From the NCBI GenBank assembly GCA_963770835.1, contig CAVYRH010000004.1:96001-160000 (forward strand): 64,000 nucleotides of DNA. The letters are read 5' to 3'. The stretch's first letter is position 1. Every line of letters starts with the position of its first letter. Below, piece after piece: positions 41,814-45,716 of this stretch. Source of the stretch: an uncultured Pseudomonadota bacterium (GTDB taxonomy: Bacteria; Oederibacteriota; Muellerivitia; Muellerivitales; Muellerivitaceae). The position numbers were made by a program, and so were the translations under genes. Under the pieces are notes generated by a model. It was not told the DNA's origin and did not search any database. It saw only the letters and a list, made by a program, of their open reading frames with translations.

Positions 41814-41854
41814 AAAAATAAAAACCCCCGGGAATTCCTGAGGGTTTTTATTTT
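41814..41854. terminator. Bidirectional terminator
   Basis: aaaataaaaaccc..ggaattcc..gggtttttatttt between convergent genes. Confidence 0.75.
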
Positions 41855-41970: not shown

Positions 41971-42930
41971 TTAAAAAAGATCCAGTTGTTTATCCGAGAA
42001 AATGGCCTTCCAACGGTTTTGGTAACCCCACTTTTCCCGGAAATGTTTCACCTTCCGGTAAAGCGCTTCGGTGTAACTTTCCGGCGGGTAAGGGCGGGGG
42101 CCGTAAAGTTTTTTCGTCTGCTCGAAGGCGGTGCGGTTGAACTTTTGGAGGACGTAGTAATAGTAGCCCTTCACCACCTGCCCCCGGAGCCTTAGCACGT
42201 TATAGACAAAATAATCCACACCGATCTCCGAGGCCGCGCGGACCATTCCTTCGATGGCATCTTCCGTATCCGTGATGAAAGGAATAATCGGCATCAAATG
42301 GATGCCGCAAGGAATTCCGTGGGCTTTCAACCGACGGAGCGCCTCGAGCCGCCTTTCGATGGGGACCGCATGGGGCTCCAAAAATTTCTGCAAGCGGGGA
42401 TCCAGGGTCGTCAGGGTCATGGCGACGCCCCCGTTGGCCTTTTCCACCAATTCCTTTAACACATCCAAGTCCCTCAAGACGAGGTCCGACTTGGTCGAAA
42501 AGACCGCCGGCCAGCCATACTTGGCCAGGAGCTTAAAGGCCCCCCGGGCCAAACCGTATTTTTTTTCGGCGGGTTGGTAAGGATCAGTGGCTGCACCCAA
42601 GGTAACCCAGTCCCTTTTTCGGCGCGGGTTTGAGAGTTCCTCCTCCAGCACCTCCAAAAGATTCACCTTGACCTGAATCTTTCGTTGGAAATCGAAAGAG
42701 TTTTGGAAGCCCAGGAACCAATGGGTGTAACGCGCAAAACAGAAAGGGCAGCCGTGGCGGCTGCCCCGGTAGAGGTTGAGGGAGTAGTAAAAAGGCTTGG
42801 GGCTGTATGGAAGCCGCGTGTGGTGAAGGGCGGATTTCACCTTGATCTCGATGTACTCCACTTCGCGCGGGTCGTCGTCGACCTCGGCATAGGTGGGTGA
42901 ATAGGAAGTGGAGAGAAAGGGCTCTTTCAA
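41971..42930 (-). CDS. Radical SAM protein, SplB/Rv2578c-like DNA-repair-associated family (first motif Cys replaced by Ser)
   Basis: NLYRGSRHGCPFCFARYTH, TDPYQPAE, TKSDLVLRDLD, LEPHA...RRL, PIIPFITD; TTG start at 42930 after a GGGGG RBS. Confidence 0.88.
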   Translation of the reverse strand: MKEPFLSTSYSPTYAEVDDDPREVEYIEIKVKSALHHTRLPYSPKPFYYSLNLYRGSRHGCPFCFARYTHWFLGFQNSFDFQRKIQVKVNLLEVLEEELSNPRRKRDWVTLGAATDPYQPAEKKYGLARGAFKLLAKYGWPAVFSTKSDLVLRDLDVLKELVEKANGGVAMTLTTLDPRLQKFLEPHAVPIERRLEALRRLKAHGIPCGIHLMPIIPFITDTEDAIEGMVRAASEIGVDYFVYNVLRLRGQVVKGYYYYVLQKFNRTAFEQTKKLYGPRPYPPESYTEALYRKVKHFREKWGYQNRWKAIFSDKQLDLF

Positions 42931-42947
42931 CGGATCCCCCGCGTGTT

Positions 42948-43436
42948 TTACGCGTTGAAACGGGGGTTTTGATAGAGAAAGAAGAGGCTGGGAGAAAAAT
43001 AGCCGGACCCGGCCTCTCCGCGTCGGATGGAATCGGCCACTTCGAGGAAGGACCGGGTGGATTCCAAGAGCTTTTCCGGCGGCACCAACTTGATCGATAG
43101 AGGTTCGTCCTCCCAAAGGTCCTTGTAATCTTTTCCAACGGGAGCGGATTTTTCCTTGAGGAACCTCAGGAATTCCGCCAGCGAAGGTGTTTTTTTCAGG
43201 GAGACCCGCGCACGAAGTCCCTCGGGCCAAATCAAGAAATCCAATAGCTCGTAATCGCCCACCATTTCGCCTTGAAGCAAAGCCTGGACTAGTCGGTGGG
43301 CATTGGGGAGGTCCTTCAACCAAGAAGAAGCCGCTCGAATTGAAACTTCATAAACTACGTTTCTTCGGGAGAAAGGAGAATAGGAGGAGGGAGATTCCCG
43401 AACTAAAGGAAATGAAGGGGATGAAAGGTAAGTCAT
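42948..43436 (-). CDS. Inactive-looking Y1 (HUH) transposase/RAYT-fold protein
   Basis: Strong AAGGAGGTG RBS; blocks YEVS, YELLDFLIWPEGLR, SLAEFLRFLK..SA and LWE align by eye to RAYT YFVT, F.L.AFVIMPDHLH, LS..M..LK..SA and LWQ, but the HUH His residues and catalytic Tyr are absent. Confidence 0.7.
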   Translation of the reverse strand: MTYLSSPSFPLVRESPSSYSPFSRRNVVYEVSIRAASSWLKDLPNAHRLVQALLQGEMVGDYELLDFLIWPEGLRARVSLKKTPSLAEFLRFLKEKSAPVGKDYKDLWEDEPLSIKLVPPEKLLESTRSFLEVADSIRRGEAGSGYFSPSLFFLYQNPRFNA

Positions 43437-43453
43437 TAAGCACCTCCTTGAAA

Positions 43454-43533
43454 AGCAGATGTCAGTTGCCAGCCTTTAGGAGTGGGCCTCCCAAAGCCAG
43501 TTAATCTATCGCTGATAACTGACGGCCGATAGC
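43454..43533. repeat. Heptamer-type imperfect inverted repeat downstream of lexA
   Basis: agcagatgtcagttgccagc (43454-43473) and gctgataactgacggccgatagc (43511-43533). Confidence 0.55.
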
Positions 43534-43538
43534 GGTTG

Positions 43539-44156
43539 TTAACGCGGGCTGAAAACGCCGACGACCTTGCCGATGATCCGGAAATCCTGGGTTTCGTTCA
43601 CCACGATGGGCTGGTATTTCGGATTGGCGGGTTCCAAGACCACCTTGGAACTGGTTTTGCGGAAGGTTTTCACCGTTGCCTCGCCCTCGATTAGGGCTAC
43701 CACGATCTCCCCCGGAGAAGCGTGGCTGGTTTGCTGGACGATCACCTTGTCGCCCGGAAGGATATGGGCGTTTATCATCGAATCCCCTTTGACGGTCAGG
43801 GCGAACAAGCTTCTTCCGCCGCGGGCCATCGAAGGGTCGACCACCATCGTGCTCTCGCGGTTTTCTTCCGCCAAAAGGGGAAGACCGGCGGCGACCTTGC
43901 CCAGCACGGGGATGGAAAGGCCAACGGTGGAGTCATCCACTAATTTCAAACCACGTGCCGTATGGTCCTCTCGTTCCAAATAACCTTTTTCCTCAAGAGC
44001 CAGCAGATGTTTGCGCGCGCTTTGGGGGGAGTTCCATTTGAAATGCCGCATGACTTCCCGAACGGTGGGCGGGCGGTGCGTCTCGGTCAGGTGGCTTTGG
44101 ACGTACTTCAACACTTCACGCTGGATGTCGGTCAGGCTTTCTTCGTTTGAGGCCAT
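43539..44156 (-). CDS. lexA: SOS transcriptional repressor LexA
   Basis: LT..Q..VL, PPTVRE wHTH, cleavage site VAAG, catalytic GDSM Ser and ATVK Lys; GGAGGA RBS. Confidence 0.97.
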   Translation of the reverse strand: MASNEESLTDIQREVLKYVQSHLTETHRPPTVREVMRHFKWNSPQSARKHLLALEEKGYLEREDHTARGLKLVDDSTVGLSIPVLGKVAAGLPLLAEENRESTMVVDPSMARGGRSLFALTVKGDSMINAHILPGDKVIVQQTSHASPGEIVVALIEGEATVKTFRKTSSKVVLEPANPKYQPIVVNETQDFRIIGKVVGVFSPR

Positions 44157-44176: not shown

Positions 44177-44226
44177 TTGAAATGGAATACGGTTGTATAC
44201 TAGTATACGAGCGTATTCTTCGTCAA
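44177..44226. promoter_or_regulatory. Symmetric bidirectional promoter with two tandem candidate LexA boxes
   Basis: TTGAAA-18-TAGTAT on + and TTGACG-18-TAGTAT on -; boxes GAATAC-GGTT-GTATAC (44185-44200) and GTATAC-GAGC-GTATTC (44203-44218). Confidence 0.75.
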
Positions 44227-44247: not shown

Positions 44248-44976
44248 ATGGTGGAAATGGATGTCCAAAACACGATCGGCGTGGAAATAGCCCGGGAAAA
44301 GAGGCCGGATTACCTGGGCCACCGCAAGCGCCTCCGGGAAAAATACGGCGCCGAAGGGGCTTCGGCGCTCCAGGATTACGAACTGCTGGAACTGCTTCTC
44401 TCCTTTTCCATTCCCCATCGGGACACCAAGCCTTACGCGAAGAGGCTGCTGGCGGTCTTCACGAACGTGCGGCGGATCCTGGAGGCGGATGTGACGGCCC
44501 TCCAAACCCTCGGGGAACTGCCGCCCCAAAGCGCCCTGCATTTCAGGGCCATGGGCGACCTCTTCCGCCTGGCCCACCAGGAGGAATTCAAGCGGGGCCG
44601 CTCCGTCGGCGGACCGGAGGACGTGGCGGCTTTCTTGAGGGAGCAAATCGGTAGCCGTCCCCGGGAAGTTTTCACCGCGCTGTTCATGGACCACCGCAAC
44701 CACCTTTTGGCCTTCGAGCACCTGCAGGAAGGCACGGTGGACCACACCGCCGTTTATCCCCGGGAAATTTTAAGACGCGCCCTAGACCTCCACGCCACGG
44801 GGATCATCCTGGCCCACAACCATCCCGCGGGAAGCCTGGAGCCCTCCGAAGGAGATAAGCAATTGACCCGGCAGGTCCTGACCGCAGCCCGCGCCATGGG
44901 CATCACGGTGCACGACCATTTGATCCTCGCTACCGAGGGGTATTTCTCGTTCCGGCAAGCGGGGTTATTGGTATGA
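44248..44976 (+). CDS. radC: RadC (JAB/MPN domain) family protein
   Basis: GHRKRLR, DYELLELLL, GTVDHTAVYPRE, AHNHPAG, HDHLI; GGAGG RBS. Confidence 0.95.
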   Translation: MVEMDVQNTIGVEIAREKRPDYLGHRKRLREKYGAEGASALQDYELLELLLSFSIPHRDTKPYAKRLLAVFTNVRRILEADVTALQTLGELPPQSALHFRAMGDLFRLAHQEEFKRGRSVGGPEDVAAFLREQIGSRPREVFTALFMDHRNHLLAFEHLQEGTVDHTAVYPREILRRALDLHATGIILAHNHPAGSLEPSEGDKQLTRQVLTAARAMGITVHDHLILATEGYFSFRQAGLLV

Positions 44977-45317
44977 GTGAAGCACTAAACGGTTTAGAGG
45001 ATTTTCCCAATGAACTACATGTGCTGATGAAATTCCATATGCAAATAGGCAGGTGGCCCCAAGATTCAGGGGAACTTTGCGCTTACGAAGAATGCGAAGG
45101 GATTCCCTTAAACATCACCAATTATCCCATGGTGTTTTCTGGGGATCCTTTTTCAAGCAAATTGAAAATCCAACTGCTCAAAATCGATGAAAAACTAGAA
45201 AAAAGCGTTCCATTTGGCGAGCTCGAATTTGGAGTCTCGATCCAAAAGGGGCAGTTGGTTGAAGAGGCGGTCAACGCGAAGTTTAAAAGTTATTTTTGCG
45301 CGTATCGAAAGTACTGA
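44973..45317 (+). CDS. Hypothetical protein (lower GC), coupled to radC
   Basis: ATGA overlap with the radC stop; 114-aa open frame. Confidence 0.55.
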   Translation: MSEALNGLEDFPNELHVLMKFHMQIGRWPQDSGELCAYEECEGIPLNITNYPMVFSGDPFSSKLKIQLLKIDEKLEKSVPFGELEFGVSIQKGQLVEEAVNAKFKSYFCAYRKY

Positions 45318-45329
45318 TAGGAGGAAGTC

Positions 45330-45716
45330 ATGAAAGAAATTAAGTCGTCGCTGGAGAAAATCCTGAAGGTCACCAGCATCTTCCGGCTGGAAAAAAGGAA
45401 ATGGCCCCTTCACGCCGCCGAGCTCCAATCCTTCGCGCTGGAACTGGGGAAGTCATTGGATTTCTCCAAGTTCCACCGCTGCCGCTTTGTCATCAAGTCC
45501 AACCAGGAAATGGTCCTGGATTTTTGCCTCTCGCCGTCGGGAGACGGCTGGGCGCCGCGGGGGGCCATGGAAGTGAGGGTTCCGGGACTGGAAAAAGAGG
45601 ACACACTTCCCATGCAGGTGGAAATAAAAGACCTGGCGCCCCAGAAGGTGGAGGCCAGGTCTTATTGTTCTGTCCCGAATTATTATGAGGAGGAGGCGCG
45701 AAAGATCTCAGCCTAA
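45330..45716 (+). CDS. Hypothetical protein
   Basis: AGGAGG RBS; 128-aa open frame. Confidence 0.65.
   Translation: MKEIKSSLEKILKVTSIFRLEKRKWPLHAAELQSFALELGKSLDFSKFHRCRFVIKSNQEMVLDFCLSPSGDGWAPRGAMEVRVPGLEKEDTLPMQVEIKDLAPQKVEARSYCSVPNYYEEEARKISA

Follow-up and report, generated by a model that had tools for sequence, protein, structure and literature searches.

In Y1 transposases, two His residues (the histidine-hydrophobic-histidine or HUH motif), a Tyr and a downstream Asn or Gln form the catalytic core, and in the available text of a survey of the group, where neither lexA nor the SOS response is mentioned, members lacking these residues are treated as non-functional and set aside (PMC6006769). 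In RayT, the repetitive extragenic palindrome (REP)-associated tyrosine transposase (RAYT) of Escherichia coli, the W-Q motif contacts the guide bases of the REP and K82 contacts the REP bulge (PMC8266576). TnpA of IS608 has been reported to interact with DnaN and to localise to blocked forks, with fork-like DNA and four-way junctions among the structures that it binds (PMC5027513). Here these systems are compared with an open reading frame (ORF) of 162 codons lying between lexA and a radical S-adenosylmethionine (rSAM) gene in a 64,000-nucleotide stretch from an uncultured bacterium (assembly GCA_963770835.1, contig CAVYRH010000004.1, positions 96,001 to 160,000), called the window below. A previous reading, made from the sequence only, took this ORF for a domesticated, non-catalytic transposase recruited into the SOS response. 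The present analysis gives good support for a conserved gene that resembles a dead transposase and lies in a LexA operon; from the earlier proposal, the fold (as predicted), the motif loss, the purifying selection and the LexA-box promoter stand, its hairpin binding is weakened, and its module with the rSAM enzyme is not supported.

The ORF is a real, conserved host gene. Among 5.8 billion proteins, 30 of 87 candidates were matches, namely the protein of the window and 29 relatives (50–68% identity), none with a Pfam domain. A 31-row profile detected the ORF in 22 of the 30 other genomes of one FCPU426 family, made up of uncultured soil bacteria, and in none of 68 other genomes of the phylum. 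In all 23 carrier genomes, including the one holding the window (G000; other G and L numbers denote the other genomes and the lexA loci compared), the ORF occurs once and immediately follows lexA. Codon models for 22 intact orthologues (the frameshifted copy of G027 left out) gave an omega (dN/dS) of 0.12–0.23, and fixing omega at 1 lowered the log-likelihood from -9567.8 to -9933.7 (a loss of 366), so that neutrality was rejected. Moreover, the frame is open in 22 of the 23 genomes despite saturated synonymous divergence (median proportion of synonymous differences, pS, 0.68). Synteny and dN/dS, the comparisons proposed in the sequence-only reading, therefore favour a maintained gene: dN/dS is far from the value near 1 expected of a chance transposase remnant, and among the 23 copies only that of G027 is frameshifted. 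A decaying remnant, or an accidental place behind lexA, would fit the several losses of the ORF and its faster evolution than that of the neighbouring genes, but it is very improbable in view of the open frame at such divergence, an omega far below 1 and, in one genome, a LexA box of the ORF's own.

At the same time, the ORF is dispensable within the family. Eight family genomes gave no match: in one, lexA is not assembled; in six, the rSAM gene comes immediately after lexA (a short 5' remnant of the ORF, containing a stop, survives in one of these); and one lacks both genes. In G027, frameshifts at two homopolymer runs mark either a pseudogene or an assembly error. When 30 lexA loci of genomes lacking the ORF were searched with a profile, no diverged copy was found, and no longer or fused member was present among 18 representative matches, the word-index searches spanning near lengths only. 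Being dispensable, the protein would tune the damage response rather than drive it.

The origin of the protein was approached by structure search of AlphaFold models against 48,161 chains, with Foldseek run as well. The ORF model (predicted local distance difference test, pLDDT, 83.8) matched TnpA-REP 4er8 best (Z 10.7, root-mean-square deviation, rmsd, 3.4, 128 aligned residues), followed by IS608 TnpA (Z 9.3) and Sulfolobus TnpA (Z 8.9), the first unrelated fold being Thg1; in Foldseek, Y1 transposases alone were returned down to rank 24 (best E 1.8e-3). For the model of a 33%-identical family member, 4er8 was again best (Z 11.3, rmsd 3.2, 134 aligned) and the rank order was the same (Z 11.3, 10.3 and 8.4), with IS608 TnpA as best Foldseek match (E 4.3e-4); the two models share most of their alignment rows and are not fully independent. 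The HUH fold anticipated for the model was thus matched, and the fold is predicted to be of the RAYT type. Motif spacing agrees: H59-W94-Y115 of E. coli RayT (35+21) corresponds to G73-W108-F130 (35+22). A profile of 36 RAYT domains gave a score of 24.7, against at most 15.4 in 59 shuffles (pairwise E 0.0027), and set W-P-x-G-L on M-P-N-H-V-H. On the other hand, no Pfam or NCBIfam family matched the ORF at E<=10, nothing significant appeared among PDB sequences, PF01797 was matched by none of 30 family members and NF047646 was not matched by the ORF. Sequence-level homology with Y1 transposases is therefore weak and marginal, and the "block for block" agreement once described for the protein holds for predicted structure and motif spacing, not for hidden Markov model (HMM) searches.

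A different account of these data is that the protein is not derived from a transposase at all, being a ferredoxin-like alpha/beta protein whose Y1 likeness reflects a shared common fold. The lack of a significant HMM match, the Thg1-like folds at Z 8 and a second Atlas query without usable match would agree with it. However, with either model, Y1 transposases occupy VIA ranks one to three and all listed Foldseek rows to rank 22–24, the 4er8 match extends through the RAYT-type C-terminus, motif spacing and the invariant Trp fit, and Atlas features point, as a lead only, to PF01797 clusters at 0.88; this account is accordingly quite unlikely. By comparison, it is very probable that the family ancestor acquired a RAYT behind lexA and that the protein descends from it.

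In such a descent, the catalytic apparatus would have been lost. The motif readings WPEGLR (residues 70–75) and FLEVAD (residues 130–135), first noted by eye in the window, were both confirmed, and the loss that they imply extends to the whole family: among 59 distinct sequences, G73 is found in 58, with no His at 73 or 75, and F130 in 56, with Tyr in none, while positions 134–135, at the site of Y---NP, are mostly A and D/E. Provided that the register is correct, the family cannot cut by the HUH mechanism, because His and Tyr are absent from the aligned positions.

The link with the SOS response comes from the operon promoter. Two tandem copies of the palindrome GWATAC-N4-GTATWC in the spacer between lexA and radC cover both promoters predicted there (Table 1). 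Taken alone, the promoter pattern is weak evidence, with two occurrences where chance would give 1.3; relatives also have TTGAC and the boxes. In G000 there are 18 perfect copies of the box (0.31 expected; 0–2 with other spacer lengths), located before lexA/radC (two), recA, dinB, two umuD-like genes, a gene for a LigD phosphoesterase domain and four IS1595 copies; another lies 197 bp before dnaB, and the remaining six precede genes with which no repair link was made. All 31 family genomes carry the box (3–65 copies, versus 0–1 for a control pattern), and at least one perfect copy lies no more than 140 bp from lexA in 19 of 22 loci, while none was found in the lexA-type loci of 23 other-family loci examined, G031 of the same order included. 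We infer that GWATAC-N4-GTATWC is the LexA operator of this family. It was not found in print in a weak search, which left uncompared the full list of the 17 published LexA motifs mentioned in PMC8565304. The spacer between lexA and the ORF measures 36–338 bp (median 74.5, 22 loci) and shows, in a crude scan, a weak terminator-like hairpin in one locus of 22 (that of the window). In G019, with a spacer of 242 bp, the ORF carries its own box with one mismatch. On this geometry, the ORF is likely co-transcribed with lexA and, therefore, likely induced by DNA damage, and its control by LexA through read-through from the boxed promoter is highly probable. The place in an SOS operon proposed earlier is in this way upheld, behind a putative operator that lexA shares with recA, dinB and the umuD-like genes. 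Co-folding of the ORF protein with a LexA dimer scored 0.00, which, as the controls were not folded, is evidence neither way.

Other occurrences of the box deserve mention. The four IS1595-family copies of G000 (C4:85251, C4:643116, C19:97411 and C26:330807) each show a perfect box 22 bp upstream of the transposase gene, and identical sites are repeated among the 65 boxes of G014 and the 16 of G030, which suggests LexA-controlled mobile elements. Also boxed in G000 are two proteins of 100 and 133 aa without Pfam match (C2:115440-115739 and C4:79493-79891) and a stand-alone LigD 3'-phosphoesterase domain (C7:100637-101170). The second umuD-like gene (C6:2083-2551) is split over two frames, by a frameshift or an assembly error.

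Regarding function, the surface of the protein differs from that of RAYTs. Net charge ranges from -6 to +5 in 22 orthologues (median -1, isoelectric point, pI, 6.2), against a median of +9 (pI 9.7) in 36 RAYT domains, and W-Q-P-R of E. coli RayT is replaced by an acidic W-D/E-D-E. Near-invariant residues include R77 and W108 (59/59 each), E30 (58/59) and E14 (57/59), as well as R48 and E111; since E30, R77, E14, R48 and E111 are new, a surface seems to have been put to another use. The sequence of events that we tentatively prefer, and which may well be wrong as a whole, would be as follows. A RAYT would have landed behind lexA in the family ancestor and lost its cutting residues; upon DNA damage, the protein would be made by read-through from the LexA-boxed promoter; and the former active-site face (E30, G73, F/L75, R77, F130 and W108-D-D-E), together with the flexible N-terminal E14/Y19 motif, would have been remodelled for protein binding, with the RecA filament, the beta clamp or a translesion polymerase as candidate targets at damaged or stalled forks. 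The product would be a RAYT-fold, non-cutting, protein-binding helper of the SOS machinery, likely co-transcribed with lexA. Binding of a fork protein by the remodelled face is the weakest step of this chain. A precedent for protein binding is IS608 TnpA, which binds DnaN as well as fork-like DNA (PMC5027513).

The same origin and regulation are compatible with a protein that binds structured single-stranded DNA (ssDNA), namely hairpins, forks or junctions, without cutting it, and that shields or marks such DNA during the SOS response. Some ssDNA-binding proteins are acidic overall, and R34, R116 and R156 are retained. Furthermore, K94 (K/R in 59/59) and K96 (K/R in 54/59) stand at the helix position of RayT K82 (PMC8266576), and the affinity of IS608 TnpA for forks and junctions points the same way (PMC5027513). 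However, the basic charge of RAYTs has been lost, the guide-contact W-Q motif is gone and no repeated hairpins flank the gene: no 14-mer of either spacer around the ORF occurs more than twice in the genome, as would be seen with REPs or bacterial interspersed mosaic elements (BIMEs), and the spacers are not conserved. The genome does contain repeated hairpins, the commonest, with CTCTCCC/GGGAGAG as its stem, being present in 32 identical copies and in variant forms, so that the palindromic richness invoked for binding targets is present, although not next to the ORF. Because of the charge and the missing repeats, a DNA binder is considered rather unlikely, and the protein-binding helper is preferred to it, if narrowly. 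Separately from this question, the spacers near the position of the ORF in L002, L003, L014, L016, L019, L068 and L072 hold differing long hairpins made of short repeats, as if miniature palindromic elements had inserted repeatedly into the spacers of the operon.

Several observations weigh against the helper and the descent assumed for it. Omega of the ORF is 3.5–4.5 times that of lexA (0.035–0.059) and about twice that of the rSAM gene (0.059–0.096), and 7 of the 30 lexA loci that are assembled lack the ORF, with one further copy frameshifted. Thg1-like proteins reach Z 8.0–8.1 for both models. Profile-profile comparison was not significant with IS200 TnpA (E 0.24), with a 120-protein RAYT set (E 0.24) or with a 9-sequence RAYT subset (E 0.78), and no intermediate was present among 1.84 billion representatives (17 family matches and one repeat artefact), nor with a wider profile (39 matches). 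The equivalence of G73 with His and F130 with Tyr comes from profile alignment and spacing, not from residue-level superposition. Finally, seven basic positions are conserved (34, 48, 77, 94, 96, 116 and 156), which fits DNA binding equally well.

A non-cutting transposase relative might instead restrain IS200/IS605 or RAYT transposases in a dominant-negative way when damage exposes ssDNA; TnpA forms dimers with hybrid active sites (PMC3597680), and G000 has 11 PF01797 matches. Nevertheless, the ORF is intact in six genomes without any PF01797 match, among them G006 (five contigs, 99% complete) and G021 (99%), which makes such a brake improbable, and the protein is very distant from the resident transposases. 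No pattern links the number of Y1 copies to the presence of the ORF, this number depending on assembly quality.

The rSAM gene was the other partner considered. In favour of a module of the ORF protein with this repair enzyme, the gap between the two genes in the window is 17 nt (42931–42947), and they adjoin in 15 of the 31 family genomes. However, eight genomes have the ORF without any rSAM match in a genome-wide search (seven intact, five of these 93–97% complete), six have the rSAM gene without the ORF and two have neither. These genomes are related, so no statistic on co-occurrence is given. The ORF and the rSAM gene are lost independently and neither needs the other; the module is therefore not borne out, and a dedicated partnership has very little likelihood. 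The rSAM protein itself scores below both NCBIfam cut-offs (Rv2578c, 208 against 430; PA0069, 203 against 360) and belongs to the broad SplB/COG1533 group, splB being listed, together with radC, among SOS members (PMC8565304). It differs from the systems described for that group in these scores and in having no obligate link to the ORF. Its C-terminus, QLDLF, is a clamp-type motif, for which the consensus QL[SD]LF has been given (PMC6006769). In the window, codon 57 (42760–42762, minus strand) encodes Ser, so that SxxxCxxC is read instead of CxxxCxxC; as the first Cys is present in 20/20 relatives (14/14 plus 6/6) and, in four runs, the only contig that spans 42762 carries the base for Cys (depth 4), this change is a probable assembly error.

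In comparison with known systems, the predicted protein most resembles RAYTs (E. coli RayT, 4er8; class 2 HuH-Y1 of PMC6006769; NF047646), the best structural match covering nearly the whole chain, and it shares with them the H-W-Y spacing, the conserved Trp, the lysine of helix 3, the Ser-aromatic C-terminal segment and a single-copy, non-mobile condition. In contrast, the ORF family lacks the HUH motif, the Tyr and the Asn ligand, is not basic, has no flanking REPs and lies in a lexA operon, and any action of its own would differ from that of RAYTs; domesticated RAYTs described so far are active, whereas motif-less proteins are those dismissed in PMC6006769. The likeness to TnpA of IS200/IS605 elements (IS608, ISDra2; PF01797) concerns the core of the modelled fold (Z 8.4–10.3, Foldseek E 4e-4 to 1e-2) and stops before the catalytic helix; unlike these transposases, the ORF is not mobile, with one copy at one locus in 23/23 genomes and neither repeated ends nor catalytic residues. 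ImuB, DinI, RecX and DdrR of Acinetobacter are small or enzymatically dead SOS proteins that act through protein partners. With them the ORF would share a functional analogy only, as the folds are unrelated. No published description of the ORF/lexA arrangement was found, subscription papers and supplements being outside the search. Described domesticated bacterial transposases keep their chemistry, so a dead Y1 protein under LexA control would, if true, represent a second route of domestication. More speculatively, and probably too broadly, catalytically dead Y1 transposases may form a class of SOS proteins not yet described, drawn into the response on more than one separate occasion (in this family, from a RAYT) and still able to locate stalled forks, an ability that they would use to bring or tune repair proteins. 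The case concerns one family and a dispensable gene of proposed function; it provides a small protein and a putative LexA operator for study in vitro, and suggests that motif-less Y1 proteins dropped by surveys as non-functional merit re-inspection.

As to the layout of the locus, the common orientation of lexA, the ORF and the rSAM gene, the strong ribosome-binding site and the short gap before the rSAM start, all pointed out in the sequence-only reading, were found as described, the three genes being on the minus strand (Table 1). A purine-rich site precedes the ORF start in most relatives (16 nt before each of 22 starts). A 105-aa database version of the protein (P0001) was rejected, as homology and the ribosome-binding site reach the upstream ATG. 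The hairpin beyond the rSAM gene is likely a bidirectional terminator closing the operon.

Table 1. Features of the lexA region, in window positions.
Feature	Position	Strand	Remarks
Hairpin with A/T tracts on either side, gap between rSAM and convergent NYN gene	41815-41854		20-nt arms, 90% complementary
rSAM gene, 319 aa, SplB/Rv2578c/PA0069-like	41971-42930	-	TTG start; PF04055
162-aa ORF, predicted RAYT/Y1-transposase fold without HUH and catalytic Tyr	42948-43436	-	G73-L74-R75, F130
Shine-Dalgarno of the 162-aa ORF, AAGGAGGTG	43441-43449	-	4 nt upstream of ATG
Imperfect inverted repeat in 102-bp lexA-ORF spacer	43461-43523		Not repeated in genome; spacer not conserved
lexA, 205 aa	43539-44156	-	TIGR00498, 207 bits (cut-off 111)
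Sigma70-like promoter, radC (predicted)	44177-44206	+	Divergent
Putative LexA box 1, GWATAC-N4-GTATWC	44185-44200
Sigma70-like promoter of lexA-ORF-rSAM (predicted), TTGACG-N18-TAGTAT	44197-44226	-	Overlapped by both boxes
Putative LexA box 2, GWATAC-N4-GTATWC	44203-44218		2 bp from box 1
radC	44248-44976	+	Divergent to lexA, both putative LexA boxes in between

Further observations concern the neighbourhood. Two ORFs without family match follow radC on the plus strand, one of 114 aa (44973-45317), which overlaps the radC stop, and one of 128 aa (45330-45716), whose product has 24–30% matches at two adjoining places in G020; the two may be paralogues controlled by the lexA/radC boxes. The lexA gene of G000 shares 95.6% identity with the one in another genus (L018, G008) and 88–89% with those in its own, while the ORF and the rSAM gene follow the genus, which would reflect either an exchange of lexA only or a binning artefact. 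Finally, in other families, with neighbours named by eye, lexA is followed by a gene of about 82 aa and then mostly by a dinB-like gene (L076-L078, L081-L084 and L091), or by an ImuA-like gene (L079, L086 and L087).

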